The notes below the pieces were generated by a model. It did not search any database and was not told the DNA's origin. It worked only from the letters and a program-made list of their open reading frames with translations. From Candidatus Poribacteria bacterium (GTDB lineage Bacteria > Poribacteria > WGA-4E > WGA-3G), in contig OZ243938.1 in assembly GCA_965214095.1 (NCBI GenBank), positions 640,001 through 704,000 on the forward strand: 64,000 bases of DNA, given 5' to 3'. Every line of letters begins with the position of its first letter. Positions within the stretch are counted from its first letter, which is position 1. Of the stretch, positions 2,110 to 41,029 are shown piece by piece. The translations under genes and the position numbers were made by a program.

Positions 2110-3558
2110 TTAGAATATGCCTGTAATCACTTCGCCTTTCACCAATTCCCGTGGTTGGTCTAAGTGATTCATCACAATAGTGTGCGGATCAATACCAAGT
2201 GTATGATAAATCGTAGCGAGGATATCGCGCGGATGCACAGGTTTTTCAAGTGGTGTTGAACCTGTTGCATCAGACTTACCATAAACCTGACCACCTTTGA
2301 CACCAGCACCTGCGATCAAACCGGTATAGCAATAGGGCCAATGGTCACGTCCATCAGGCGCGTTTCCATTACCAGATGTACTAATACCCATCCGTGGTGA
2401 TCGTCCAAATTCACCAATAGCGAGCACAAGCGTCTCTTCTAACATACCCTTCTGATCTAAATCTTCGAGCAGAGAAGAAACCGCACTATCTAACTTGGGA
2501 CAGTGTAGGTTTTTCAACGGACCAAAGTTGGCAGCATGCGTATCCCATGCAGTAGTATTTGGATTGCCGTTCGCTACTGAAGGCCAGTTCACCTGAACGA
2601 ATCGCGTACCTGCTTCTACCAAACGGCGTGCAAGCAGTGCACTCTGACCAAATGTATGTCGACCATACTTGTCACGTAGTACATCCGTTTCTTGAGACAA
2701 ATCAAACGCATTTCGTGCCTTCTGTGAAAGGATGAGATCATACGCCTTTTCATAATATTCGTTCAATGCATAAGAATCGGCGACCTTGTCAATCTCTGGC
2801 ATATTTGCGTTGATCGTTTCGAGTAGAGTTTTTCGACGCTGCAATCGCGCAGGTGGTATTTCGGGTCGGAGTGACAGATCATCCAACTTGATTTCTTGGT
2901 TCGGATCTTGGAAGAGAAAATACGGGTCATACGCTCTACCGAGGAACCCAGCATTTCCACCTTTACCAATGATACCACTCTCCTGCATCGGTCGTGGGAG
3001 TTGCACAGCTGCCAACATCGGTTCATCTGGTGGTTTGAACTTCGCAATATGTGCAGCAGCATTTGGATGGTCAGCAGGTGAGGGTGGGTCAAGCTGCCCC
3101 GAAGGCGCGACCTTGTCCGGTGTCTCTCCTGTAACCATCTGATACATCGCAGCAGTATGATTGAAAAGTCCCGCTGGCGTATAACTCACTGAACGAATCA
3201 GACATGCTTTATCCATCTGTTGCGCTAATTTCGGCATCGTTTCTGATAACTGAATGCCAGGTACATTTGTCGGAATAGGATTAAATTCACCCCGTATATT
3301 TGACGGAGCATCAGGTTTTGGATCCCAGATATCAATGTGACTCGGTCCACCTTGTAAGAATAGCAAAATGACAGAATTTGCTTTACCCCAACCGTTGAGA
3401 GGCGTCACGGGGGCAACTGTCGTGTTTGCCTTGGCTTGGAGTGACAATACTTGTGGTAGACTTATACCGAGCATCGCCGCGCCACCCACGCGGAGAAACT
3501 CTCTACGTGAGAACCCATCACATAATCTTCCGGGTGTTTGTGGTAACGATATCATCAA
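2110..3558 (-). CDS. DUF1501 family protein (Tat-exported)
   Basis: SRREFLR Tat motif; FLQGGPSHIDIWDPKP, WDTH, GEFGRSP, GRDHWP motifs. Confidence 0.92.
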   Translation of the reverse strand: MMISLPQTPGRLCDGFSRREFLRVGGAAMLGISLPQVLSLQAKANTTVAPVTPLNGWGKANSVILLFLQGGPSHIDIWDPKPDAPSNIRGEFNPIPTNVPGIQLSETMPKLAQQMDKACLIRSVSYTPAGLFNHTAAMYQMVTGETPDKVAPSGQLDPPSPADHPNAAAHIAKFKPPDEPMLAAVQLPRPMQESGIIGKGGNAGFLGRAYDPYFLFQDPNQEIKLDDLSLRPEIPPARLQRRKTLLETINANMPEIDKVADSYALNEYYEKAYDLILSQKARNAFDLSQETDVLRDKYGRHTFGQSALLARRLVEAGTRFVQVNWPSVANGNPNTTAWDTHAANFGPLKNLHCPKLDSAVSSLLEDLDQKGMLEETLVLAIGEFGRSPRMGISTSGNGNAPDGRDHWPYCYTGLIAGAGVKGGQVYGKSDATGSTPLEKPVHPRDILATIYHTLGIDPHTIVMNHLDQPRELVKGEVITGIF

Positions 3559-3621: not shown

Positions 3622-6111
3622 TTAACGATTGAATAAGAATGCAGGACTATTAATTAATGCCCACATCAAATCTTGTACGCCTTCCTCCTTAGATTTGGCA
3701 CTGGCAAGATGATCAATCGCAATCGTATATTCGTTCTCCATTGGTAACCGTGCAAATGTTGCAAGATACATCTCTTCAATGATGACACGATCATCATTGT
3801 TTTCTTTGAGGAGTTTTGCAATTCGTCCGTTAGGATCAATAATAGCATTCGCAACGGTTGGTCCGTTGATTAGGTTCATCGCATGAGCGAGGCTTACTTC
3901 AGTTGTTCTTTCACATTCACAAGAACTCTCACGTTCCGGACGACCAAACAATTTCAAAAATCCATCGTCCTTTACTTTACTATCGGGTAATTGAACAGCA
4001 CGGAACTCTTTTGGAACACCTTGAAACTTCGGTTGACTGCCAGTAGCAACACCTATGGCATCTAACAACTGTTCTGCTGTCAACCTTCTGGCAATTCCGT
4101 GTGAAAAATTAATCGTGTCTTCTTTATTCCATTCGTTCGTCTTGATACTCTGTTGATATGTTCGAGAACGGACAATCGTTTTCATGATATGCTTAATATC
4201 AAATCCGCTTTCAACAAAATCCTTCGTTAGGGCATCAAGAAGTTCAGGATTGCTGGGTGGGTTACTTGTCCGAATATCATCAACAGGTTCAATGATACCA
4301 CGTCCCATAAAGTAACTCCATATACGGTTTACACCAGCTCTCGCAAACATCGGATTTTCAGTTGAGGTTAACCATTCTGCTAAAGATTCACGTTTATTAG
4401 TGATTTCTTTCTTTGTTTCACCAAATGGAACAGACGGTGGCACAACCGCTAAGGTTCTCGGATGTTGAACCGGCGTAGGATTGAAACTGGCATAGACAAC
4501 TTCTTCACCCGGTAATCGTCCATTTTTGACCTTAACATCTGAGAAAAATGCACCGAATTCATAGTATTGATTCTGTGTCCATACCTCAAATGGATGGTCA
4601 TGGCATTTATTACAGGAGAACCGAACCCCAAGAAATAGCTGCGTTGTATTCTCAACTGCTGCAGTATATTCACGTGAAACACGGAAATAATTCGCCGCCG
4701 GGTTCTGATAAGCACTACCAGTAGCAGTAATCAAATCATGAACAAATTTGTCGTAAGGACGGTTTTCTGCAATTGACTCATGTATCCACTGTTGGAAAAG
4801 CCACATACCGCGTTCACCAAGGAATTTTCGGTTTGATTGCAGCAAATCACCCCATTTATGTGTCCAATGATCAACATATTCTGAGGTATCTACCAACTCA
4901 TCAATCAGTTTTTCACGTTTCTCCTTAGTGGGTGTTTTATCGGCAAGGAAACTTCGCACCTTATCAGGTGAAGGTGGCAGTCCGGTCATATCAAAATAAA
5001 TCCTACGTACAAACTCTTCATCTGTACAAAGTTCAGACGGTAGGATTTTCAACCTTTTCAGTTTGTTGTGGACATGTGTATCTATATAGTTGTAAACAGG
5101 TGTCTCAACCCATTCGTATCCACTCCGATCCCCCATCACGATGATGCCATTCGTACTATACGCACCTTCATAACGAGTAAGGATTGCAGTCTCTCCACGA
5201 CGTTCTGCTGTAACAACTCCATCGTCAGTTACCTTAGCAACGTCATTCATGCTGCTGGTGAATTTCGCTTCACGAGTGACATCACGTGTTGTGCCATCTG
5301 GATAGTGAGCAATAACTATTAATTGCTGCTTTGTCCCTGGCATAGACAACTCTGCTGAATCCGGAAATACCTCTAAACGTTCAACACGTTGGGTTTTTTC
5401 AACATCCGATACGACACCTTCACTAATCCATTGATGAATCAGATTGTAGTCACGCGATTCTGGAACGATGACCTGTCCACCCTTGTGTGGAACTTCCGAT
5501 GTCGGTTTCAGCAACATCAAACTCTGCTCTGGAAACGCACGATTGAAACGTCTACCTGATATATCCTCAATCAACAATTCGTAGTCGAAATCAGGATCGT
5601 AACCACGTAGAGAGAGTTTGAAGCCGTTTTTCCCTTTTGCACCACCATGACACGTGCCGTTATTACAACCCGCATGACTCAAGATCGGCATGACATCTCT
5701 AACAAAACTTACAGGTGGGGCATCAACACTTTTCACAGTCACAGGTAATTCGGTTGTCATACCATTAACTGTTACAACTATCTTTGTATTGCCAACTGCT
5801 GCAGGAAAGATATATCCATCTTCATGTAATTTTACACCATCTGAGGCAGGTTTTAGTACTGCCCACGTTGTTACATCAACCCATTTTCCATCTTTCGTTT
5901 GTCCCGAAACAAGCACACGACGACCATCTCGCGCATGCTCAAGCATCAGAGACTCTGGGTGAGTTTTCAACGCTTTTATATCAGGAACTTCTACACTCGG
6001 TGTTGTCTCCTCCATCTGACCCCATGTTGATTGTTGTAAAATCATACAACACGAGAGAACAACAAGAAGGGCAACAACCAAGTTTAAATTGAGTTTCACA
6101 TTAACCTCCAA
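3622..6111 (-). CDS. DUF1549/DUF1553 (PSD1) protein with Ig-like domains
   Basis: GCNNGTCHG, LFLGVRFSCNKCHDHPF, NPPSNPELLDAL, RRLTAEQLLD, FGRPERESSCECER motifs. Confidence 0.92.
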   Translation of the reverse strand: MEVNVKLNLNLVVALLVVLSCCMILQQSTWGQMEETTPSVEVPDIKALKTHPESLMLEHARDGRRVLVSGQTKDGKWVDVTTWAVLKPASDGVKLHEDGYIFPAAVGNTKIVVTVNGMTTELPVTVKSVDAPPVSFVRDVMPILSHAGCNNGTCHGGAKGKNGFKLSLRGYDPDFDYELLIEDISGRRFNRAFPEQSLMLLKPTSEVPHKGGQVIVPESRDYNLIHQWISEGVVSDVEKTQRVERLEVFPDSAELSMPGTKQQLIVIAHYPDGTTRDVTREAKFTSSMNDVAKVTDDGVVTAERRGETAILTRYEGAYSTNGIIVMGDRSGYEWVETPVYNYIDTHVHNKLKRLKILPSELCTDEEFVRRIYFDMTGLPPSPDKVRSFLADKTPTKEKREKLIDELVDTSEYVDHWTHKWGDLLQSNRKFLGERGMWLFQQWIHESIAENRPYDKFVHDLITATGSAYQNPAANYFRVSREYTAAVENTTQLFLGVRFSCNKCHDHPFEVWTQNQYYEFGAFFSDVKVKNGRLPGEEVVYASFNPTPVQHPRTLAVVPPSVPFGETKKEITNKRESLAEWLTSTENPMFARAGVNRIWSYFMGRGIIEPVDDIRTSNPPSNPELLDALTKDFVESGFDIKHIMKTIVRSRTYQQSIKTNEWNKEDTINFSHGIARRLTAEQLLDAIGVATGSQPKFQGVPKEFRAVQLPDSKVKDDGFLKLFGRPERESSCECERTTEVSLAHAMNLINGPTVANAIIDPNGRIAKLLKENNDDRVIIEEMYLATFARLPMENEYTIAIDHLASAKSKEEGVQDLMWALINSPAFLFNR

Positions 6112-6180
6112 AGTGTGACATGAAACTGATTCTCACGGTAGAACCGTCTTTTTTACTATTATACCAATTTTTTTGACTTT

Positions 6181-6999
6181 TTACCTCTGATTCTTCAAAT
6201 CTCCCCAAACTACGGGCAATTTCCCGCGAGAGGATACATCTAAATATGCTGATTCACTTGCTAACCAATTAATTATATTTTCTGTGACTTGTTCTAAGTT
6301 ATCAATACTCTGATTATTCTTATGATAGTTTGGTAGTCGCCAATTCAAGTTAAAGACTTTACCGTCTCCTGCTTCCCAATACCCAAAGGCAGCAATTCTG
6401 TCAGCATAATCAGTTCCACCTTCCCAAGCATGAGCAAGGGTGGTAAAATTCTTAGCAAGACTGTCAAAATAATCCCCGCTCAGTGGATAACCCGTAGAAT
6501 TTAATTGAATCCAATCATTAAGTTTTGGAGCATCCCCATCAACGTTTTCCAGACCATCGATTAGACCAAGGTCTATTGTCTCTTGCAAAACAATTATTCC
6601 AACTTTACTGCCGTCGTCAACAACGGGGTCAAATAAGCGCGGTTGTGCAGCCTCAAGTCCCATGGGTGTGACATAACTAAATGCCCTACCCGTAAAGAGC
6701 AAAGCACCACCACTTTCGGCATAATCTAAAAGCGCATCAATTTCTGCATTGGACAACTCACCAGGATCGGTATCACCTTCATGCCACCACACAACGCCAT
6801 AATTCTTCAAAGTTGCACTCTTAATGTCGTTTTTTCCTAATTCTGTTGTGCTAAATGAATCTTTAGCAAATTCCAACGCAGGTTTCGTAAAATCTCCATT
6901 ATCTCCAAGATAAAGAAATCCTACCTCTAATGCTGCGTTTACCACATTTAAACCACATATTAGCATTAATGTCAAGTAAATGATAATTTTTTTATGCAT
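6181..6999 (-). CDS. Secreted hypothetical protein with C-terminal V..GKL...WG.LK motif
   Basis: Signal peptide; C-terminus DVSSRGKLPVVWGDLKNQR. Confidence 0.7.
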   Translation of the reverse strand: MHKKIIIYLTLMLICGLNVVNAALEVGFLYLGDNGDFTKPALEFAKDSFSTTELGKNDIKSATLKNYGVVWWHEGDTDPGELSNAEIDALLDYAESGGALLFTGRAFSYVTPMGLEAAQPRLFDPVVDDGSKVGIIVLQETIDLGLIDGLENVDGDAPKLNDWIQLNSTGYPLSGDYFDSLAKNFTTLAHAWEGGTDYADRIAAFGYWEAGDGKVFNLNWRLPNYHKNNQSIDNLEQVTENIINWLASESAYLDVSSRGKLPVVWGDLKNQR

Positions 7000-7087
7000 T
7001 CTTTCCTCCGATTTTAAGGGTAAAGTAAATCTATCAACATTATAACGCTTTACAAAATATGTGCAACTAAATTATGAATATAACAAA

Positions 7088-8539
7088 TCACATAGGACCA
7101 ACGCGTTCAGGCCCCCTATCCATAGCAAACATTGAGGCATCAAAACTTCTTTTCAATAAATCATATTTTATATCTTGTTTCTCTTGCAATTCCCAGAGAT
7201 TATTGAACTCATCCGCATCCTCAACTAAATCGTAGAGTTCACCCGCTTCATGTCCGTGGTATACTACTAACTTATAACGTTTATCTCGGTACATTGTTGC
7301 GTAGGAATGATCCCGGCTATCCAATGCATCATAGTATTCACAACGTACAAAGTCACGATGATGATTAGCATCCGATTCACCTTTGAGAACTGATAACAAT
7401 GATCGTCCATGCATCTCATCTGGAACAGACAATCCTGCCAATTCCAACAGTGTTGGCACTTTGTCAACAAGTTCAACAAGGGCATCACTTTTCAAACCAC
7501 TCTCAAAATTATCTGGATAGGAGAAAATCAATGGTACTCTGACCAAACCTTCATAAAAACGACATCCTTTTTGAATAAGACCGTGATCCCCTAACATCTC
7601 ACCATGATCACTTGTGAATATGATTACAGTGTTTTCTCGTTGTCCTGTTTCGTCAAGTACATCCAACATTCGTCCTAACTGATCATCAATCAGTTTAATC
7701 ATCGCATAATATGCTGCAATAAACGTCTTGGCATCTCTTTTACCAACTGTGCCGTCACGTTTCGTCCCTGGTGATCGAGGTAGTATTGGATTACGAATGT
7801 CAAGTTCATCTGGTGTTCTGACTTTTGATTGGAAATCTATTTTTTCCAATCTTTGCTGTTGTTCTAAATCACTCTCTTTGAATAGCGGTTCAGGCATCTC
7901 ATCAGAATTAAACTGTTCGCGGTATGTCTGTGGTGGATTGAATGGTGGATGTGGGTCATATATGTTAACACTCGCAAGCCAAGGACCATCACGTTCCTCC
8001 CGGATAAAATCTATCGTTTTTTCCGCACACCAAGTTGTTTGGTGTAATTCTGCAGGAACACCTTCAGGGTTCTTGGTTAACTCCCCAAGAATATACCCTT
8101 TTGAACGAACCCAATCGGCATAATCGTGACCTTCTTTCCAATCATCTCGTGGGGCATGACTGTATTGCCAATAACGGTAACCATCGTTCGCCCGCGGTTC
8201 TATTCTACCATAAGCACTCGCAAGATGTAATTTTCCTATCAGTCCACAATCGTAACCTATGTCTGCAAGTGTACGCGTAATCAGAGGATATGTCTCAGGA
8301 TAATAAGCGTTCCCATTGCCATTAACATGCGTTGCACTCGGATACATCCCTGTCAAGAAACTGGAACGACTCGGTGTACATATCGGACTTTGACAATAGG
8401 CATGTGTAAAGGCTACACCCTCTGCAACTAAACTATCTATATTCGGTGTTGAGACATAAGGATTGCCTAATGCACCTATAGTATCGTAACGTTGTTGGTC
8501 TGTGCAAATCCAAAGGATATTTGGCTTTTCAATAGGCAT
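7088..8539 (-). CDS. Formylglycine-dependent sulfatase (S1 family)
   Basis: PNILWICTDQ, CTPSRSSFLTG, GKLHL, DPHPP, SDHG motifs. Confidence 0.93.
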   Translation of the reverse strand: MPIEKPNILWICTDQQRYDTIGALGNPYVSTPNIDSLVAEGVAFTHAYCQSPICTPSRSSFLTGMYPSATHVNGNGNAYYPETYPLITRTLADIGYDCGLIGKLHLASAYGRIEPRANDGYRYWQYSHAPRDDWKEGHDYADWVRSKGYILGELTKNPEGVPAELHQTTWCAEKTIDFIREERDGPWLASVNIYDPHPPFNPPQTYREQFNSDEMPEPLFKESDLEQQQRLEKIDFQSKVRTPDELDIRNPILPRSPGTKRDGTVGKRDAKTFIAAYYAMIKLIDDQLGRMLDVLDETGQRENTVIIFTSDHGEMLGDHGLIQKGCRFYEGLVRVPLIFSYPDNFESGLKSDALVELVDKVPTLLELAGLSVPDEMHGRSLLSVLKGESDANHHRDFVRCEYYDALDSRDHSYATMYRDKRYKLVVYHGHEAGELYDLVEDADEFNNLWELQEKQDIKYDLLKRSFDASMFAMDRGPERVGPM

Positions 8540-8549
8540 CTATGTACGT

Positions 8550-10145
8550 CTACTTTGCGGTAGCAGTAAAACCCACTGTTTTAACGACATCTGTGAGTTC
8601 GTCAACTTTTGTTGTGTTCTTACGAACCTTAATAACTGCTTGATCAGGGAGAGAAACTTCGGCACTAATAACGTTCTGATGTTTTGTAAGTGCATCCTGC
8701 ACTTTTGCTACACACGCACTTCATGTCATACCCGATACTGTCAATACCACCTCTTCGCTGGCAGTTGTTTCTATTGGCACGGACATAAACATTTTCAGTT
8801 GACTACCTGAGTTTGCATCAAAGATACGAATTTTGCCATCAAAACCGCCTGCAGCAAGTTGTGTGCCATCTGGATGAAAAGCAAGTGCAAAAACTGATAC
8901 GGTATCACCTTGCATTGATGCCAACCGTTTCCCATCTGCTACATTGTATATACGTGCTTCTCCAGAAGAACTACCCGTAGCAAATTTGCTTCCATCTGCA
9001 GAAAAGGCAACAGACTTAATTGCCCCAGACTGCGCTTCGTAAGCACGAATGAGATTGAAGTCTGTGTTACCAACATCTCTACGAGTTTGACGGAACATTC
9101 TATAAAGTCTTGGAATTCGGTCTTCTCCTACACTTAACACCTGGTCTTCATTAGGATGCCGTGCAATTGCGTTGATTTCTCCGTAACCTTTGTTACTTGA
9201 ATTTACATCGTCTACAAAAGAACCTGTATCAACTTCAACCAATTTCAGGGCAGTATCACGACTACAACTTACAAAATGCGATCCATCAGTAGAAAATACA
9301 GTACCGAACACCCAATCACCATGATTGTCAAATTTAACAAGTTCCTTCTCGTCCGCTACAGAGATTACACGCACAGTCTTATCAGAAGAACCTATAGCAA
9401 CACGGGACACATCTGGTGAAAATGAGAGTCCATAAATTGTGTCATAAGTTGAACGGATTGCTTTGTTAAGTGTGTTCGTTGCAGTATCCCAAAGCTGTAT
9501 TTCTCCAAATTGTGCAGGAGAACCGCCAGCAACCCCAAGTGTTTTACCGCCATCCGCATAGACAATTGATGTTATGCGACGGGCTTTTCCAACATATCGC
9601 GCTTTGATCTCAAAGGTCTTGGAATCATACAATAAGACTTCATTAACACCTGACACAGCGAGTGTCGTTCCATCAGGTGAAAAAGCAAGTGCTGAAACAA
9701 CTGGTGGCACTGTGTATACAGGAAGTTCGCCATCCATTGCATCTGCATTCTCTGGAGTATCATCCTTCGCTCCCTCAAGAATCCATCGTCTGAATAAATC
9801 TATCTCTTCTTTGGTGAGTGGGTCTTGATTCTGTGGCATAGCAGGTGGATCCCCAGAAATAAGTTCAATGAGTAAACTTTCATCCGGTTTGCCTACAATG
9901 ATGGCTTCTCCTGCCATTCCACCCCGTTTGAGCTCAGCATAAGTCGTTACTATCAAATCTGCATTTGGATCACCAGGGTGATGACAACCTTGGCAGCTAC
10001 GTTTTAGGATCGGTACAATCTGTGTATGGTAACTAACCGGTTTCTCTTTATCGTGACCGTCTGCCATAACGGAAGGATTCCAAAGTAAAAAACTGATTAA
10101 AATTAGACCAAAATAAGATATAAACTTCATACTTGATATACTCAT
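8550..10145 (-). CDS. Planctomycete-type cytochrome c + WD40 propeller + C-terminal HMA domain with probable selenocysteine (UGA at 8721-8723)
   Basis: CQGCH heme motif and WD40 repeats. The frame continues past TGA as GMT*SACVAKVQDAL...GFTATAK to TAG at 8550-8552. GGGAG RBS precedes ATG 10145. Confidence 0.85.
8688..8704 (-). promoter_or_regulatory. Putative bacterial SECIS hairpin
   Basis: mRNA AAGUGCA-GGA-UGCACUU forms a perfect 7-bp stem; the loop starts 23 nt after the UGA and begins with G. Confidence 0.7.
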
Positions 10146-11196: not shown

Positions 11197-12162
11197 TTGA
11201 GATCACGTAATTTAAGAAAGCACCTAAGTTTGTTAATGTTGTTCATACTAATTATTGTAACTGGATGCCATGATAAAGTAGATGTTGATCATAAATCCGA
11301 TAGGAAATTGAACGTCGTCTCTACAATTGGTATGATTACTGATATAGTTGAAAATGTAGGACGAGATAGAATAGACATTACAGGTATTATCGGGGAAGGT
11401 GTTGACCCACACCACTACAAACCAACGGCAAGAGACACTGAAATTATGAAGGACGCAGATATTATCTTCTATAATGGATTACATCTTGAAGTTAGAATAA
11501 CCGGATCAGTCTTTAAAAAAATGGATGATAAAACGAAAGCAATCGCTGTAACAGATGGAATAAATCGTTCACAACTTCGGAAAACATCGGAGTTTATAGG
11601 TGGATATGACCCACATGTATGGCATGATGTCTCTTTGTGGATGAAGGCAACAGAAAAAATTCAAGACACATTAATAAAGAGAGATCCACAAAATGCTGAA
11701 TATTATCGTGCCAATGCAAAATATTACTTGACGCAGTTAGATTCTTTGCACTATGAGATGCAAAGACTTTCAGCACTGATACCAATAAAGCGACGGGTGC
11801 TTATAACAACTCATGATGCATTTGGTTATCTTGGAAAAGCCTACGGTTTTGAAGTGCGCGGTTTACTAGGTATAAATACGGAAGATGAAGTAAGCATTGC
11901 TGATGTTAGAGATCTCGCAGAATACATTATTGAAAATAGAATCTCAACTATGTTTGTTGAGACTTCCTCCCCGCCACGTGGTATCTTTGCTGTTCAAGCA
12001 GCTGTGAAGGCAAGAGGTTTCAACGTTAAAATTGGTGGTGGATTGTTTTCGGATGCAATGGGTACGCCCGGCACAACTGAAGGTACTTATATCGGGATGA
12101 TGCGACACAACATAAACATCATAGTAAGCATGCTTCAAACAGAGTTAGCATATCATGAGTAA
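11197..12162 (+). CDS. Zn/Mn ABC transporter substrate-binding lipoprotein (TroA/MntA family)
   Basis: Lipobox VTGC; GVDPHHY, YDPHVW, THDAFGY, LFSDAMG metal-ligand motifs. Confidence 0.92.
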   Translation: MRSRNLRKHLSLLMLFILIIVTGCHDKVDVDHKSDRKLNVVSTIGMITDIVENVGRDRIDITGIIGEGVDPHHYKPTARDTEIMKDADIIFYNGLHLEVRITGSVFKKMDDKTKAIAVTDGINRSQLRKTSEFIGGYDPHVWHDVSLWMKATEKIQDTLIKRDPQNAEYYRANAKYYLTQLDSLHYEMQRLSALIPIKRRVLITTHDAFGYLGKAYGFEVRGLLGINTEDEVSIADVRDLAEYIIENRISTMFVETSSPPRGIFAVQAAVKARGFNVKIGGGLFSDAMGTPGTTEGTYIGMMRHNINIIVSMLQTELAYHE

Positions 12163-12394: not shown

Positions 12395-13012
12395 ATGATT
12401 ATCTGGTTTAGACGACACTGGCATGTTTCATTTATTGGACTTTTGGTATTAGGAATATTTATCATATCTTTTAATCAACAGTCAGAATCCCAAAATACTG
12501 AGAAAACATATAATATTGACTCTGTCCATTCATCCGTACTTTTCCGAGCGAAACACATGGGAGTTGCTTACAATTACGGCAGATTCAACGAATTCTCAGG
12601 TAATATCGTATTGGATGATACTGATATATCCAAAAGTAAAGTTGAATTTGAAGTGAAAAGTGCAAGTGTTGACACTGCAAATGCCAAACGTGACCAACAT
12701 CTAAGAAGTTCAGACTTCTTTAGTGTAAAACAGTTCCCAGTTATTACTTTCAAAAGCACAAATGTCAGTACCAAGGCTGAACAAGAAAATATGTTGGAAG
12801 TTACAGGAGAACTCAATCTGCACGGTGTGAAGAAATCAATAACCATTGATGTTGAAATAACGGGTAAGAAGTCTATCCCACAAACTGGTGAAGTAATCGG
12901 TTTTCATACAATCTTTGACATAAAACGGAGTGAATACGGAATTAATTTTGCAATGGACGGTGTCAATGATGACATCCAAATAATTATCAGTGTTGAAGCA
13001 GCAAATAAATAG
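12395..13012 (+). CDS. YceI family lipid/polyisoprenoid-binding protein
   Basis: YNIDSVHSSVLF..KHMG, SVDT..AKRDQHLRSSDFF, GELNLHGV motifs. Confidence 0.92.
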   Translation: MIIWFRRHWHVSFIGLLVLGIFIISFNQQSESQNTEKTYNIDSVHSSVLFRAKHMGVAYNYGRFNEFSGNIVLDDTDISKSKVEFEVKSASVDTANAKRDQHLRSSDFFSVKQFPVITFKSTNVSTKAEQENMLEVTGELNLHGVKKSITIDVEITGKKSIPQTGEVIGFHTIFDIKRSEYGINFAMDGVNDDIQIIISVEAANK

Positions 13013-13965: not shown

Positions 13966-16900
13966 ATGGAGGAGAAAAGAATGCAATTTAAGTATAACAA
14001 GAACTCATATAGAAACTGGATAAAACGAACTGCTTTATTTCCCTATGTATTTATTCTCAGCATAATGCTTCTCATCAATGGTTGTGTTAAGATGGAAGCG
14101 ACGCGTAAAGCAGATTGGGAGACAAACTTCACGGATCTTCACTTTGTGAACGTTAATAAAGGATGGATCGTTGGTCTTGGCGGCACAATAGTACATACAG
14201 CTGACGGTGGAAAAACTTGGGCAAAACAGGAAGTAAATACAACAGGTGATTTTAAAGCGGTCTATTTTGCTAATGAAAATGATGGGTGGGCGGTAGGAAC
14301 AGATGGATTGATTGCTACTACCGATGATGGCGGAAGATTCTGGAGCCTACAAAAGAGTGGAACTTCTGCTATGCTTCGCGATGTATTCTTTGCTAACGGT
14401 AAGGAAGGATGGGTTGTTGGTGAGGATTCTGATGTATTATACACCTACAACGCTGGAAAATCTTGGGGTAGACTTGAAGCTGTCAGTGAATTTCCTCTCA
14501 ACGGTGTCTGGTTCGTGGACAATGATAGAGGTTGGGTTGTGGGAACGTATGATAGAATTTTCCATACAAAAACCGGTGGAGAATCTTGGAACGAACAGAG
14601 CAATCGCTTTGAAGGTGAACGCGACAGACTAATAAATGATAACAAAAAAGTATTCTTTATAAGTAACAATGAAGGTTGGATTGCCGGGAGTGACGGTTCC
14701 ATTTTCCATACTACATCTGGCGGAGTCAGTTGGGAGAAACAAGATAGTCGTATACCACTGATTAATGGACACGTCAGAGAAACTATTAACAGTATCCATT
14801 TCGTAGACAAAAACTACGGTATCGCAGTTGCTGATATAGGTTTCATCACACGCACTGAGGATGGTGGAGACAACTGGCAGTTGATGGAGAGCAGCATTGA
14901 GAATAACCTTACGGGTGTGCAGTTCACTTCAAGAAATGAAGCATGGGCTGTCGGATGGTCAGGGACTATCATGCACTCAGAAGATTCAGGTAAGACTTGG
15001 GAAATGGTCAGTGGAACCACAGCAAATGACCTACAAAACGTTCAGTTTACAGATGCAAATCGGGCAATCGCTATCGGTGAACGCGGCACAATGGCAGTAA
15101 CAAATGATGGTGGAGAAACGTGGAAGGAATTGGACAACGAAATATGGGATGGAATCTGGAATATCTATTTTGCAACCGACAAACACGGCTGGGCAGTAGG
15201 GGAACGCGGACTCATAATTCATTCCAATGACGGTGGTACAAACTGGGAACCGCAACGCGCACCAGCACCTTTTGCTCTTCGCGCAGTCCATTTCATCAGC
15301 GAGAATGTCGGTTGGATCGTCGGAGATATGGGAACCATCATTCATACTATTGACGGAGGAAACATCTGGCTACCGCAAATACCTATTGGTGATTTTCTCT
15401 CTGTCATGCTAAAGGGAGTCTTCTTCCTTGATGAGAAAACTGGTTGGGCAATCGGGTGGCCGGGTGTATGCATTGCAACAAAAGATGGTGGTTTGTCATG
15501 GCAACAACAATCTACTGATACATTCAATGAACTCTACGGTGTCTATTTCATTGATGAAAATACAGGCTGGATTGTTGGACAATTTGGTGAGATTTTACAT
15601 ACGAAAAATGGTGGGAAGGATTGGAATATCCAACATAGTGGCACACAAGAAAACTTAAACAAACTCTATTTTGCCGATGCACAACACGGTTTGATCGTCG
15701 GAGATAACGGAATTATGCTCACCACTGTGAACGGTGGAAAAAAATGGGAACTTCAAGATAGTGGCACGGAAAATGACCTTTATGGATTGGCTCTTTCACC
15801 GGATGGAGTAGTCGCAGTTGGTAAAGGTGGAATCGCAATGCGATACTCCGTTGACAATATGAAAATACCAGCGAAACTGCCTCCTACCGCTACAGAACCA
15901 GAGGTCGTCGTTGTGGATGAGGAAAAACCTGTTGTGCCAGTAGTTTATCATTGGGATATAATTCGTCAAGCAACTTGGCGGACAGATTTTTCTGATACTC
16001 ATTTTGTAGACGCAAATACTGGATGGGCAGTAGGTTCTGCAGGAGCTATCGCACACACCAAAGATGGTGGTAAAACTTGGTTACCACAACATAGTGGAGT
16101 TAGCGTGAATTTACGAGATGTAGAATTTACTGACCATCAAAATGGACGTATTCTTGCATCTAATATGATACTCCAGACAGACAACGGTGGAGAAACATGG
16201 AAACCGATGGTTAAGACAACACAACAGAACTTGCCACGTATCAGCATGATGAAATTCATCAATAAAGATGTTGGTTGGCTTGGTGCGTCAATAGGACAAG
16301 TCTTACATACAACAGACGGTGGAAAAACGTGGCAAGTCCAGAAGACAGGCACGACAAACGCAAATATCACAGACCTTCACTTCATCAATGCATTGGAAGG
16401 ATGGGCAATTGCACCACAACGACGTGATGGCGGATTTGTTCTACAGACAGTAGATGGTGGAAAATATTGGAAAATACAGTCAAAAACCAACCAGTCTGGA
16501 ACTGCAATCCATTTTTCAGATGCAAAAAATGGCTGGGTCATTCTGGGCAATGGCAACTCTTTGCTCTCAAATGATGGCGGAGAAACTTGGAAACTGCAAA
16601 TTACAAAACAGAGTCCAGGTAGATTACGTCGTATTACATTCCGTTCCCATACAAGTGCATGGGGAATTGGTGGTGGAGGCGCGTTTATCACCGAAGATCA
16701 GGGATTGAATTGGCAACAAATTCCTGTTTCAACAGGAAACCAAATGATAGCGATGCGTCAACCACCTCCTGAAACTCCAGAACAATCAGACACCGATGAA
16801 GAAAACAAAGATCAAGAAACAGCTGCAACAGAAGAATTTAACCCGTTTGATTCACTACAAAGACAATTAAGTCAGCAAAGACAACAACCAGGAAACCTTG

Positions 16901-18021
16901 CGCCTGAAGGCACAGTACCATCAAATCCTGAACAGGCAAATACCGCGCCAGCACAACAGCCAACACCGCAACCTGAACCGAGAAGAAGGTTTAGACGTGG
17001 TGGAAGCGGAATTGCACACGTTTATTTTCTTGATGACAAAAATGCATGGGCAGTAGGAAGTGCCGGGAGCATCTATCACACAGCAGATAGCGGAAAAACT
17101 TGGGAACGTCAACTCGGTGAACAGCAACGGAATAACTTCAGAGAAGTTCTCTTTTACAACGATATGACCGGTTGGATTGCAAGTAGTGATGGCACCCTGA
17201 TAGAAACACAAGATGGTGGTAAAACATGGGAAAAACTTGCTATCAGAACAAACCAACGTCTTATAGGAATTCACTTCGCAAGTCTTGACCCAAAATGGGG
17301 TTGGACAATGCGAAGTGATGGAACAGTCCTTTACACCACTGATGGAAAGACTTGGACAGCAGGGGACACACCTGAAAGACCGCCATTTATTGAAGGTGAC
17401 CCACCGGGGCGATACTCAATCAACGATGTTGATTTTGGCAAATTTTCCGAAGGATGGGGTGTTGGTAGATTTGGTGACATCATACATAACAAAGATGGCG
17501 GGCCTACCTGGACATTGCAACGCACAACTGCCAATGACACCCTCACAAGTGTTGACATGAAATTTGCGCCACTCGGTTGGGCAGTTGGTCAAAGTGGCGT
17601 AATACAAAGGACTATCAACGGTGGAGAATACTGGCGAATGCACGAATCTAACACAATATATGACCTAACTTCTGTATCATTTATTACAAAACGGAAGGGA
17701 TGGGCAGTTGGAGAAGGTGGTATTGTCCTCAAAACTGTGGATGGTGGATTTACATGGCAACCCAAAATGTCTGGCAATACAAACACTTTGAATAGTATAA
17801 TCGCACTATCAGAAAAGGTTATATACGCTTGTGGTGATGCAGGAACAATTATACGTTCATCCGATGGTGGTGAAACTTGGCAACAAGAGCATACCGATAT
17901 AGATAACGACCTCTATGTCATCACCCGTGCAAAAGAAGGTAATTCACTTTGGGTTGTTGGTCAATGGGGAGTTATTCTACGGAGAAAAGTAGAAAATCCA
18001 CTACACGCGTCAACGCGGTAA
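13966..18021 (+). CDS. Large YCF48/BNR-repeat beta-propeller lipoprotein
   Basis: More than 25 repeats of F....GW.VG..G.I..T.DGG..W; lipobox INGC; Q/P-rich linker. Confidence 0.9.
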   Translation: MEEKRMQFKYNKNSYRNWIKRTALFPYVFILSIMLLINGCVKMEATRKADWETNFTDLHFVNVNKGWIVGLGGTIVHTADGGKTWAKQEVNTTGDFKAVYFANENDGWAVGTDGLIATTDDGGRFWSLQKSGTSAMLRDVFFANGKEGWVVGEDSDVLYTYNAGKSWGRLEAVSEFPLNGVWFVDNDRGWVVGTYDRIFHTKTGGESWNEQSNRFEGERDRLINDNKKVFFISNNEGWIAGSDGSIFHTTSGGVSWEKQDSRIPLINGHVRETINSIHFVDKNYGIAVADIGFITRTEDGGDNWQLMESSIENNLTGVQFTSRNEAWAVGWSGTIMHSEDSGKTWEMVSGTTANDLQNVQFTDANRAIAIGERGTMAVTNDGGETWKELDNEIWDGIWNIYFATDKHGWAVGERGLIIHSNDGGTNWEPQRAPAPFALRAVHFISENVGWIVGDMGTIIHTIDGGNIWLPQIPIGDFLSVMLKGVFFLDEKTGWAIGWPGVCIATKDGGLSWQQQSTDTFNELYGVYFIDENTGWIVGQFGEILHTKNGGKDWNIQHSGTQENLNKLYFADAQHGLIVGDNGIMLTTVNGGKKWELQDSGTENDLYGLALSPDGVVAVGKGGIAMRYSVDNMKIPAKLPPTATEPEVVVVDEEKPVVPVVYHWDIIRQATWRTDFSDTHFVDANTGWAVGSAGAIAHTKDGGKTWLPQHSGVSVNLRDVEFTDHQNGRILASNMILQTDNGGETWKPMVKTTQQNLPRISMMKFINKDVGWLGASIGQVLHTTDGGKTWQVQKTGTTNANITDLHFINALEGWAIAPQRRDGGFVLQTVDGGKYWKIQSKTNQSGTAIHFSDAKNGWVILGNGNSLLSNDGGETWKLQITKQSPGRLRRITFRSHTSAWGIGGGGAFITEDQGLNWQQIPVSTGNQMIAMRQPPPETPEQSDTDEENKDQETAATEEFNPFDSLQRQLSQQRQQPGNLAPEGTVPSNPEQANTAPAQQPTPQPEPRRRFRRGGSGIAHVYFLDDKNAWAVGSAGSIYHTADSGKTWERQLGEQQRNNFREVLFYNDMTGWIASSDGTLIETQDGGKTWEKLAIRTNQRLIGIHFASLDPKWGWTMRSDGTVLYTTDGKTWTAGDTPERPPFIEGDPPGRYSINDVDFGKFSEGWGVGRFGDIIHNKDGGPTWTLQRTTANDTLTSVDMKFAPLGWAVGQSGVIQRTINGGEYWRMHESNTIYDLTSVSFITKRKGWAVGEGGIVLKTVDGGFTWQPKMSGNTNTLNSIIALSEKVIYACGDAGTIIRSSDGGETWQQEHTDIDNDLYVITRAKEGNSLWVVGQWGVILRRKVENPLHASTR

Positions 18022-38998: not shown

Positions 38999-39251
38999 TA
39001 GTAATATAATGCATTGTATGAATAAAGCAGTCCTACAGGACGATCTTTTACCCGAATATGATTTATGAAAGTTACGGGACCGAGGGACAGGTCCTGGACA
39101 CAAATCCTTGCTGGTAAACCTATTGTCCAATTAGAACCTGACGTTGCATGGGTTTTTCCAATGTTGTAGTTGTGAATGAAGCACTACTATTTCTGATTCA
39201 CATTACAAGAAAAACAACGTTGGAGATTAATCGGGGTTATTGGGGAGCAAC

Positions 39252-40070
39252 ATGTCACAGAAAATTAGACATCTACTCGGTCTATCGGGTGGAAAAGACA
39301 GTTCTGCACTTGCTGTCTACATGCGAGACAGAGTGCCAGAGATGGAATACTTCTTCACTGATACCGGTAAAGAACTGCCAGAGACTTACGATTTTTTAGA
39401 CCGACTTGAAGCATTCCTCGGCAAACCGATTGCGCGTCTCAACGTTGAACGTGATTTTGATCATTGGTTGACACTTCACGGTGGATTATTGCCATCCTCT
39501 CAAGTCCGTTGGTGCACTATCAAACTCAAAATCAAACCTTTTGAGGAATATGTCGGCGAAGATATGGTGTATCATTACATCGGTATTCGTGCTGACGAAG
39601 ATCGTGTCGGATACAAACCACCTAAGATAAGTTCCCTTCAAAACATTTTCCCCAAATATCCATTTAAAGATGACGGTATTACCAAAGAGGACGTTTTCCG
39701 AATCCTTGAGGAGAGCGGACTCGGTTTGCCTGACTATTACAAATGGCGCACGCGTTCTGGTTGCTACTTCTGCTTTTTCCAACGCAAATCCGAATGGGTG
39801 GGACTCTTAGAGGAACACCCCGATCTCTTTGAACTTGCCAAGGGTTATGAGAAATTCAATACAGATACAGGTGAACGGTTTACATGGAGTCAGGGTGAAA
39901 GTTTAGAGGAGTTAACAGACCCAGAACGGATAGCACAAATTAAAGAACGCACAGAACAGGCAAAGACATCCAAGAAAAAGGAAAAACCGAATCGTCGTTT
40001 GATAGAAATTCTTACCGATGTTCACGATGATGAGGATGACGAGGAACCTTGTTTGGTTTGTCATAAGTGA
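39252..40070 (+). CDS. PAPS-reductase family protein (SspD-like)
   Basis: LSGGKDS PP-loop, RWCT, GIRADE, RSGCYFC, C-terminal CLVCH; GGAG RBS before ATG 39252. Confidence 0.88.
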   Translation: MSQKIRHLLGLSGGKDSSALAVYMRDRVPEMEYFFTDTGKELPETYDFLDRLEAFLGKPIARLNVERDFDHWLTLHGGLLPSSQVRWCTIKLKIKPFEEYVGEDMVYHYIGIRADEDRVGYKPPKISSLQNIFPKYPFKDDGITKEDVFRILEESGLGLPDYYKWRTRSGCYFCFFQRKSEWVGLLEEHPDLFELAKGYEKFNTDTGERFTWSQGESLEELTDPERIAQIKERTEQAKTSKKKEKPNRRLIEILTDVHDDEDDEEPCLVCHK

Positions 40071-41029
40071 AAATGTGGAGATTGGCAATGGATAGAGAAC
40101 AAATTCTGCAAAAATTTGAAACCTTACGACAATGGGGCAGTAGAGGTGAACGAGCACCACACAAACCCTTGTTGGTTCTCTATGCCATTGGTAAATTGCT
40201 ACGCGGTGAAGATAGACTTATTCCTTATACTGATGACATTGAGGAAAATCTCAAGAAATTGCTGAGAGAATTTGGTCCGAGGAGAAATACTTATTATTCA
40301 CATTTCCCATTTTGGAGACTGCAAAATGATGGAGTCTGGGAAGTCACCAATGCAAATAATATACGGCAAACAGCAAGTGGTGATGCTTATGTTACAGATT
40401 TAAGAGAAAACAACGTATCAGGTGGCTTCAATGAGACAATCTCTGAACAACTACAAAACGATTCTGATCTTGCAGTTGAAATAATTCATAGCCTTTTAGA
40501 TGCTCATTTTCCAACTTCAATTCACGAAGACATCCTACAGTCAGTTGGTATTGAACTTCCCTTACAAGCATTTGATACGAGAACGCGCACATCTAATTTC
40601 CGAACTAGCATTCTTAGAGCTTATGAGTATAAATGTGCTGTCTGTGGGTTTGATGTAAAATTGGGTGATTCTCCTGTAGCATTGGAAGCTGCACATATCA
40701 AATGGCAAAGGGCAGACGGCCCTGACATTGAAGTAAATGGATTGGCTCTCTGCTCGCTGCATCATAAGTTATTTGACCGTGGTGCATTCACATTGTCAAG
40801 ACAACTACAAATCTTAGTCTCTGATGATGCACATGGGACAACGGGTTTTCAGGAGTGGCTGATGGATTTTCACGGCAACACGATCAATTTTCCACAGAGA
40901 CGTTCCTACTATCCAGAGGAAGAGTTTATCGGTTGGCACGTCAAAGAGGTGTTTCAAGGACATTATCGTGAATTGAAATCAGCAGGAATTGAAAATACTC
41001 AACATCATAAGAAAAATAACCCTGACTGA
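40067..41029 (+). CDS. Sulfur-binding-domain (SBD) HNH endonuclease, ScoMcrA-related phosphorothioate-reading family
   Basis: N-terminal RAPHKPLLVL...HFPFWRLQNDGVW; C-terminal CAVCG..EAAHI..NGLALCSLHHKLFD. Confidence 0.8.
   Translation: MKMWRLAMDREQILQKFETLRQWGSRGERAPHKPLLVLYAIGKLLRGEDRLIPYTDDIEENLKKLLREFGPRRNTYYSHFPFWRLQNDGVWEVTNANNIRQTASGDAYVTDLRENNVSGGFNETISEQLQNDSDLAVEIIHSLLDAHFPTSIHEDILQSVGIELPLQAFDTRTRTSNFRTSILRAYEYKCAVCGFDVKLGDSPVALEAAHIKWQRADGPDIEVNGLALCSLHHKLFDRGAFTLSRQLQILVSDDAHGTTGFQEWLMDFHGNTINFPQRRSYYPEEEFIGWHVKEVFQGHYRELKSAGIENTQHHKKNNPD

Follow-up and report, generated by a model that had tools for sequence, protein, structure and literature searches.

Organization of the locus and domain architecture of the encoded protein

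The window analysed here is a stretch of 64,000 nucleotides from a Candidatus Poribacteria bacterium (GenBank assembly GCA_965214095.1, contig OZ243938.1, positions 640,001 to 704,000 of the forward strand), and all positions below are those of the window. Its minus strand carries a gene for a protein with a probable signal peptide, a PSCyt1 heme domain, a seven-bladed WD40 propeller and a C-terminal heavy-metal-associated (HMA) domain that is interrupted by an in-frame UGA codon; a sulfatase gene and three further genes follow (Table 1). We propose that the UGA is read as selenocysteine (Sec) and that the gene very probably encodes a genuine, phylum-wide selenoprotein of the Poribacteria. The initial annotation of this stretch had already described a secreted heme-WD40-HMA fusion heading a DUF1549/DUF1553/DUF1501 cluster. 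Pfam recovers PSCyt1, WD40 and HMA behind a signal-peptide-like N-terminus, and the sulfatase gene, an open reading frame (ORF) without family, the DUF1549/DUF1553 gene and the DUF1501 gene follow on the same strand, in agreement with that description.

As an ordinary ORF, the gene runs on the minus strand from 10241 down to a TGA at 8723..8721, in the context VVLTVSGMT-TGA-SACVAKVQ. Since homologues begin at the equivalent ATG, the likely start is ATG 10145 and not TTG 10241, so that the full gene occupies 8550..10145 and encodes 531 residues, with Sec as residue 475. The read-through sequence is EEVVLTVSGMT-U-SACVAKVQDALTKHQNVISAEVSLPDQAVIKVRKNTTKVDELTDVVKTVGFTATAK, terminating at TAG 8552..8550, and in nearly all of the 80 loci compared below tblastn matches reach residue 563 of the read-through query started at TTG.

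An AlphaFold model of the protein, built with 36 read-through orthologues in the alignment, has a mean predicted local distance difference test (pLDDT) score of 75.7. The propeller strands extend over residues 153-454 with pLDDT values mostly of 80-97, and the best Foldseek matches are seven-bladed WD40 propellers, with template modelling (TM) scores of 0.85-0.90 on the target; against the PDB, Foldseek returned generic WD40 propellers only, without a functional lead. The N-terminus resembles a Sec-type (secretory) signal peptide, which suggests that the protein is exported, and PSCyt proteins are thought to be exported.

Table 1. Features of the read-through gene, its RNA elements and the genes that follow it in the window
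Feature	Positions	Strand	Evidence and remarks
Full read-through gene: signal peptide, PSCyt1 heme domain, seven-bladed WD40 propeller, HMA(U-x-x-C)	8550..10145	-	531 aa + TAG stop
Probable signal peptide (MSISSMKFISYFGLILISFLLWNPSVMA/DG)	10062..10145	-	Suggested by sequence; N-terminal helix of the model, residues 2-22
PSCyt1 (Planctomycete cytochrome c) domain	9834..9995	-	PF07635, E 2.7e-8, 34.7 bits vs cutoff 22
CxxCH heme motif of PSCyt1	9981..9995	-	C51, C54 and H55 invariant in 36/36 aligned orthologues
Seven-bladed WD40 beta-propeller	8784..9689	-	PF00400, 112 bits
HMA domain, split by UGA	8556..8759	-	PF00403
In-frame UGA (U475), Cys1 position of GMT-C-x-x-C	8721..8723	-	TGA in 82/82 copies
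Possible lower helix of the selenocysteine insertion sequence (SECIS), AUGACGU 8723..8729 with RYGUUAU 8668..8674, enclosing UGA	8668..8729	-	RNAalifold
SECIS apical hairpin AAGUGCA-GGA-UGCACUU, perfect 7-bp stem, 3-nt GGA loop (8695..8697)	8688..8704	-	Folding and 82-copy alignment
True stop codon TAG	8550..8552	-	82-copy comparison
Sulfatase gene, start 10 nt downstream of TAG	7088..8539	-	PF00884, 169.7 bits; adjoins the gene in 70/80 loci
272-aa protein without family	6181..6999	-	Only sub-threshold Pfam matches; 70/80 loci
PSCyt2 (DUF1549)/PSD1 (DUF1553) protein	3622..6111	-	PF07583 163.8 bits, PF07587 166.6 bits; 43/80 loci (flank-limited)
DUF1501 protein	2110..3558	-	PF07394, 349.7 bits; 20/80 loci (flank-limited)

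Conservation of the in-frame UGA and of the frame behind it

The HMA match covers the last 71 residues (PF00403, E 1.5e-9, 38.5 bits against a gathering threshold of 24.8) and comprises the tail together with the 12 residues that precede the UGA. PDB alignments to domains of ATP7B, CopA and MerP place the TGA at the first Cys of GMTCxxC, as the initial annotation had read it, and because this position falls within the HMA match, the TGA lies inside a domain. The model shows the HMA fold beta-alpha-beta-beta-alpha-beta (E463-471, H476-487, E492-498, E502-508, H514-523, E527-530; pLDDT of the block 80-93), with U475 in the loop that joins strand 1 and helix 1. Since the stop splits one HMA domain, the two pieces cannot be independent genes.

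Relatives were gathered in two ways: a word-indexed search of 5.8 billion proteins, in which 8000 candidates were scored and 4452 proved to be significant relatives, and a scan of species-representative genomes, in which 233 relatives were confirmed and the best 80 of the 233 analysed, the weaker 153 lying outside the analysis. The resulting 80 loci are nearly all titled Poribacteria and show 69-94% identity to the query. Together with the window they provide 82 copies, namely the window and 81 copies in 80 species-level genomes, including a second, partial copy in one of them (L071).

The codon at the Sec position is TGA in 82/82 copies and TGT or TGC in none, whereas the second Cys of the motif is TGT or TGC in all 82. 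The open frame behind the TGA spans 56 codons in 81 copies and 57 in the remaining one, and ends at TAG (58 copies), TAA (23) or TGA (1). In the window itself, the 56 additional codons up to TAG 8550, 10 nt before the sulfatase ATG at 8539, can be read directly, as the initial annotation had stated; the conserved UGA in relatives that it had named as a check is present in every copy, ahead of a frame under purifying selection. TGA in all 82 copies and a frame open for 56-57 codons exclude both a sequencing error and a recent nonsense mutation.

Across tail codons +13 to +56 of the 82 copies, entropy at the three codon positions is 0.49, 0.34 and 1.25 bits, and pN/pS (the ratio of nonsynonymous to synonymous polymorphism) is 0.25 in the tail vs 0.29 in the 60 codons upstream of the TGA. 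Conservation is lost past the true stop, where 13 triplets show ~1.7 bits at all three positions. Identity to the tail of the window ranges from 59 to 89%. On these comparative measures, the tail is translated, coding sequence.

Public annotation divides the gene into a ~474-aa 'hypothetical/WD40' protein and a 50-aa orphan. Among the best 120 database homologues (72-95% identity), several of which bear the name Candidatus Poribacteria, 119 are annotated as ending ...GMT, the sole exception being a 403-aa fragment (P0107). A search of the tail region against shorter proteins returned only 22 split-off tails and no close stand-alone HMA relative; these 22 public proteins (P0272-P0293, 50-55 aa, 'hypothetical protein', Poribacteria) are the HMA tail called from an internal GTG, a start that falls inside helix 1. 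Cys homologues exist at the level of the HMA family (Pfam, solved domains); among the orthologues there are 0/82.

Taken at face value, these public records would mean that translation simply terminates at the UGA, that the 474-aa protein is complete and that the frame behind it is a separate small gene or a decaying remnant. The 119 calls that end at GMT and the 22 separately recorded small proteins accord with such a reading, as do distant relatives of 40-51% identity, which end naturally past a VPI/L motif and lack HMA. We nevertheless hold it to be highly improbable: the frame runs uninterrupted in 82/82 copies, its length is fixed at 56 or 57 codons and pN/pS is 0.25, and the stop would cut one HMA domain behind strand 1 and its GMT loop, leaving two pieces neither of which could fold alone. 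An exhaustive search of cluster representatives, of which 30 of the 150 listed were inspected in a list dominated by long WD40-repeat proteins, showed that the short distant relatives stop a few residues past the VPI/L motif and that none of the 30 ends at GMT. The inspected relatives outside Poribacteria end after the propeller, without an HMA tail and without UGA. Because these distant relatives end tail-less, the HMA(Sec) tail seems to have been joined to an older protein specifically in Poribacteria.

Two side observations concern the surroundings of the UGA. The preceding codon is ACG in 73/82 copies and the following base is G in 70/82, which may reflect a context preference for Sec decoding. 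In L071 the 3' end of the gene occurs in two copies (6836-7654 and 5084-6640), both with TGA and hairpin, the second being fused in frame behind a sulfatase-like N-terminus (MTVNTPNILWICTDQQ...); this double copy may have arisen in the assembly or by genuine duplication.

A conserved hairpin downstream of the UGA

The initial annotation had reported a perfect 7-bp hairpin with a GGA loop 23 nt downstream of the UGA. The perfect stem stands, and the distance needs to be reassigned: the stem starts 16 nt after the UGA, and the figure of 23 nt applies to the start of the loop, a spacing found in 82/82 ungapped sequences. In the window the hairpin has an energy of -6.4 kcal/mol (z -3.74), equalled by 0/200 shuffles, and RNAalifold finds the 7-bp stem unguided in the alignment, with standard pairs in 98.1% of stem cells. 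Changes on one side of the stem are mostly to G-U, and in two sequences the outer A-U pair is replaced by G-C.

That the hairpin is conserved in relatives at the nucleotide level, as the initial annotation required, is seen most clearly at synonymous sites. The stretch AAAGUGCAGGNUGCACUU is almost invariant in the ungapped 82-sequence alignment, synonymous sites included. Synonymous entropy over hairpin codons +6..+12 amounts to 0.1, 0, 0, 0.12, 0.1, 0.61 and 0.37 bits, against 1-2 bits in the flanks, and third-position entropy to 0.19 bits in hairpin codons vs 1.25 in the rest of the tail. Val +7 is GTG in 82/82 sequences, whereas Val +4, elsewhere in the tail, uses four codons; Gln +8 is CAG in 80/80, the other Gln codons of the tail being mostly CAA; and Ala +10 is GCA in 81/82, while Ala +28 uses four codons. 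Outside the hairpin, the same amino acids are encoded in the tail by 2-4 codons. The loop begins with GG in 82/82 sequences and varies at its third base (GGA 60, GGG 12, GGC 9, GGT 1), so that the codon specifies Asp, Gly, Ala or Val. A free third loop base beside a frozen stem indicates that it is the two G's and the stem, rather than the protein, that are under constraint.

For comparison, the consensus of bacterial SECIS (bSECIS) elements in the Fig. 2 legend of PMC13188914 allows loops of 3-9 nt on stems of 4-16 bp and calls for a G at one of the first two loop positions, most often with G or U behind it, a UGA-to-loop distance of 16-37 nt and a minimum free energy (MFE) of -7.5 kcal/mol or lower. 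The hairpin agrees with this consensus in four respects (a loop of 3 nt, a stem of 7 bp, the GG start and the spacing of 23 nt), which bears out the suggestion in the initial annotation of a bSECIS with an early loop G. In a 63-nt segment, the median MFE is -18.3 kcal/mol and the MFE fold includes the 7-bp hairpin in 62/82 sequences; the folds that contain it range from -25.3 to -9.8 kcal/mol, seven of these values being overestimated, with a non-standard outer pair forced. The fold signal is confined to the minimal hairpin and to the comparative data.

The apex resembles that of the experimentally studied Escherichia coli fdhF SECIS, also a stem-loop just 3' of the UGA within the coding region whose loop begins with G: UGCAGG(UC)UGCAC in fdhF corresponds to UGCAGG(A)UGCAC here. 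The two differ in that the fdhF loop has 4 nt (GGUC) and lies 18 nt after the UGA, compared with 3 nt (GGN) and 23 nt here. The fdhF SECIS needs a bulged U for SelB binding, to which the perfect stem of the present hairpin offers no counterpart.

A lower SECIS helix that encloses the UGA and includes its U, with a partner ~50 nt downstream, is tentatively suggested by the alignment: 98.1% of its cells are paired, and its covariation score of 0.100 was reached by 8/500 shuffles, slid controls giving <=0.051. A middle helix (alignment columns 19-23 with 46-50) was rejected, only 80.5% of its cells being paired, with many breaks at the Cys TGT/TGC wobble. A scan of the window and the loci for the same apical hairpin behind a TGA gave 33 other matches, none convincing.

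The hairpin might also serve another purpose, as a CsrA/RsmA binding site (given the GGA loop), a ribosome pause site or an element in the control of the sulfatase gene. A weak Rfam match of CsrB over GCAGGAUGC (E 4.5, 7.4 bits vs a gathering threshold of 71) points in that direction. A CsrA site needs GGA, however, and the loop retains GGA in only 60 sequences, its third base being free; moreover, the hairpin keeps a fixed distance to a universally conserved in-frame UGA and lies ~150 nt upstream of the sulfatase start. We therefore regard such a role as highly improbable.

UGA as a stop codon and the selenocysteine machinery

Among 41 ORFs of the window, 23 end in TAA, 9 in TAG and 9 in TGA (8 besides this gene), and the TGA-ended ORFs include uvrC, trmB, trpC, birA and the sulfatase gene. 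None of the other TGA-terminated ORFs of the window shows a meaningful read-through. As TGA ends 8 other ORFs, it is a normal stop in this organism and the codon has not been reassigned.

Support for the Sec machinery comes from literature on the phylum and on one orthologue-bearing genome, not from the genome of the window. Table S4 of Slaby et al. 2017 (PMC5649159) lists SelA 2, SelB 1 and SelD 1 for Candidatus Poribacteria WGA-3G, and the available text of that paper describes SelA and SelB as co-occurring in most sponge-symbiont bins. One of our 80 loci (L070) derives from the WGA-3G genome and carries the TGA form. In a 2026 study (PMC13582414, as far as its text is available), Poribacteria are among nine phyla with Sec-type group 4 hydrogenases, all of whose SECIS elements have G in the first or second loop position.

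Recoding by the same hairpin need not deliver Sec: a non-canonical tRNA acting with SelB, or near-cognate read-through, could insert Cys or another residue. We consider this very unlikely, because a product that simply contains Cys would hardly account for TGA in 82/82 copies and for the lack of any TGT or TGC, and because the Sec-making SelA and SelD are listed for Poribacteria WGA-3G (PMC5649159).

The U-x-x-C site and its known counterparts

Selenocysteine in HMA-type sites is on record in the family NF041115 (UxxU), in a UxxC heavy-metal P-type ATPase and in MerP (PMC13188914, PMC2398784, in the parts available); the initial annotation had stated correctly that such Sec-containing HMA/MerP-like domains exist. 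NF041115 ('UxxU_metal_bind'), the top NCBIfam match of the tail (42.4 bits, far below the family cutoff of 95), is likewise of HMA type, with UGA codons at the metal-binding CxxC positions. It differs in being a stand-alone protein of ~74 aa with two Sec residues, whereas here a single Sec lies at the C-terminus of a 531-aa cytochrome c-WD40 protein. With 42 bits against a cutoff of 95 and with only one Sec, the tail is therefore not a member of that family, which appears in PMC13188914 as 'putative mercuric reductase' of Olavius symbionts.

The Sec-containing P-type ATPase (TIGR01525, UxxC) and the Sec-MerP of marine metagenomes share with the present protein UxxC or Sec in an HMA- or MerP-type site, and unlike it they have a transporter as partner or none. 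MerP is also a periplasmic HMA protein, and its solved structures 1osd and 1afi align with the tail with E values of 2e-6 to 2e-5. Membership in MerP (TIGR02052) was rejected, the tail scoring 32.2 bits vs a cutoff of 92.55 and no mer genes being found among 42 ORFs of the window.

No published selenoprotein of PSCyt1/WD40 architecture, nor any such selenoprotein of Poribacteria, was found in a literature search that did not extend to the supplements of PMC13188914 and PMC13582414. The terms WD40, HMA, PF00403, Planctomycet, PSCyt, PF07635, DUF1549, beta-propeller and sponge are absent from the 2026 review PMC13188914, as available. We regard the protein as a new selenoprotein family with a known type of site, Sec in the CxxC of an HMA domain; the novelty lies in the protein and its genomic context, and the recoding mechanism is an ordinary one.

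By analogy with the Cys pair in MerP, CopZ and the HMA domains of ATPases, there is about an even chance that the Sec-Cys site binds a soft metal. A redox role is the main alternative, which we hold to be less probable: the UGA would still be decoded, and U-x-x-C would form a redox centre, cycling between selenenylsulfide and selenol/thiol and coupled to the neighbouring c-type heme. Most UxxC selenoproteins in the table of PMC13188914 are thiol-oxidoreductase-like, this being the usual role of Sec in UxxC; the same chain holds a heme c domain with an invariant CxxCH, and electron transfer has been proposed for the surrounding gene module (PMC3542564). Fold and motif, on the other hand, are those of a metal-binding HMA domain, with copper-ATPase domains, MerP, the N-terminal domain of MerA and CopZ as best matches; no match to a thioredoxin-like family was obtained, and the earlier Sec-HMA-type families, in the text available, are all named as metal-handling.

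Observations that weigh against the selenoprotein interpretation

Several results count against the interpretation of the gene as a selenoprotein with a metal-binding Sec site. On the RNA side, the bare hairpin falls short of the published MFE limit of -7.5 kcal/mol, which is reached only with the flanks, and its near-invariant stem leaves minimal covariation, with double changes at one pair in 2 sequences. When 91 nt around the UGA are folded, the result does not surpass shuffled sequences (z 0.76), and the MFE fold of the window prefers to pair the 3' arm with AGUGCG just after the UGA. Rfam gave 0 matches over the whole window at the gathering threshold, hence no SECIS, and at permissive E-values on 8540-8780 only chance-level matches to a viral pseudoknot and CsrB. 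The alternative pairing (8707-8720 with 8686-8695, minus strand) is a property of the window only; most other loci have GGG GCU there and lack it.

As for the machinery, none of selA, selB and selD was found among 42 ORFs of the window searched against NCBIfam, and the window, like 60 of the 80 loci, contains no tRNA and hence no selC. A Cys-containing orthologue is likewise absent from the 82 copies, and a search for a full-length Cys form, in which residues 495-563 were compared with proteins of 309-986 aa, yielded 32 candidates without a significant match among them. Cys forms are described for nearly all selenoprotein families in the available text of PMC13188914, which makes the all-Sec state unusual. 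Concerning the protein, the heme domain is modelled poorly (pLDDT ~30 at residues 48-107), and metal binding and redox chemistry at the site are not told apart by the present evidence.

The operon as a variant of a four-gene module

The setting of the gene corresponds to the 'most complex four-gene cluster' of Planctomycetes/Verrucomicrobia described by Kamneva et al. 2012 (PMC3542564), whose members are given there as a DUF1501 protein, a small signal-peptide protein, a PSCyt1/Big_2/PSCyt2/PSD1 protein and a PSCyt1/WD40 protein; in the text available, the function of the module is called unknown and electron transfer is suggested. The operon in the window matches this module of the Planctomycetes-Verrucomicrobia-Chlamydiae (PVC) bacteria, with PSCyt1+WD40, PSCyt2+PSD1 and DUF1501 all found. 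A Big_2 signal in the N-terminal part of the PSCyt2/PSD1 protein is weak (E 0.0095, below the cutoff), and the other two proteins gave no PSCyt1 or PPC match. The gene is the PSCyt1/WD40 member that heads the module, into which a sulfatase gene is inserted in Poribacteria. The PVC protein (PMC3542564) shares its architecture with the present one, and in both cases the neighbours are a Big_2/PSCyt2/PSD1 protein and a DUF1501 protein; it differs in that the inspected relatives outside Poribacteria have neither HMA tail nor UGA and in the sulfatase gene that the Poribacteria operon adds.

Among the more distant relatives, P0147, P0182, P0245, P0246 and P0212 are chains of 1000-1700 aa in which PSCyt1-WD40 is fused to Big_2-PSCyt2-PSD1. 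Such single-chain fusions elsewhere support a physical or functional link between the products of the first and fourth genes of the operon (Rosetta-stone argument).

Divergently upstream of the gene lie a ZnuA/AztC-like substrate-binding protein of a metal ATP-binding cassette (ABC) transporter (11197-12162, plus strand) and a YceI protein (12395-13012, plus strand). ZnuA occurs in only 10/80 loci (YceI in 51/80), so the metal transporter is not a conserved partner. Further along, 13966-18021 (plus strand) encodes a 1351-aa protein with Ycf48/BNR-like propeller repeats (NF010237, 426 bits, 11 stretches) that is found near the gene in 41/80 loci. At 39240-43049 (plus strand), three adjoining genes resemble a defence island: they encode a 3'-phosphoadenosine-5'-phosphosulfate (PAPS)-reductase-like protein (39240-40070), a phosphorothioated-DNA-binding restriction endonuclease (NF045808, 356 bits vs a cutoff of 180; 40067-41029) and an argonaute-like protein (NF052569, 130 bits, below the cutoff of 700; 40989-43049), all on the plus strand.

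Proposed mechanism and biological implications

In bacterial Sec insertion, SelB brings Sec-tRNA(Sec) to a UGA that is followed by a SECIS. On the present proposal, the hairpin beginning 16 nt past the UGA would act as such an element while the ribosome sits on the codon; SelB with GTP and Sec-tRNA(Sec) would bind the apex of the hairpin and deliver Sec to the UGA. Translation would then run for 56 codons to the TAG, completing the HMA domain and yielding an exported protein of 531 aa whose HMA binding loop reads G-M-T-U-x-x-C. In that loop, a soft metal such as Cu(I) or Hg(II) could be bound in two-coordinate fashion by the selenolate and Cys478.

Release factor 2 competes with Sec insertion at the UGA, and a fraction of the chains is therefore expected to end at Thr474, so that two isoforms may arise. 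Termination at the UGA would release a 474-aa form that has the architecture of the tail-less relatives outside Poribacteria. The two forms could constitute a selenium-gated switch, a proposal that we make with considerable doubt: when selenium is scarce, the product would be the ancestral, tail-less cytochrome-propeller, and when it is available, a Sec-bearing HMA arm would be added, which would capture or hand over a soft metal (e.g. copper) or shuttle electrons for the co-transcribed sulfatase and the DUF1501 (sulfatase-like) enzymes. If true, such a switch would for the first time attach a concrete chemistry to this module, which has expanded massively in Planctomycetes, Verrucomicrobia and sponge symbionts.

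Irrespective of the switch, the comparison points to a systematic mis-annotation in at least 80 species-level genomes of Poribacteria. That all copies examined have Sec at this site and that no Cys orthologue was encountered argues for a task that selenium performs here and sulfur cannot. The function of the module is still called unknown in the available text of the 2012 and 2017 papers (PMC3542564, PMC5649159). With a probable selenoprotein at the head of the PSCyt1/PSCyt2/PSD1/DUF1501 module, the Sec-Cys HMA site offers a testable handle, be it for soft-metal binding or for selenium redox chemistry in the periplasm. It would provide the first chemically specific clue to the PSCyt/DUF1501 module and would imply that a dominant group of sponge symbionts depends on selenium.

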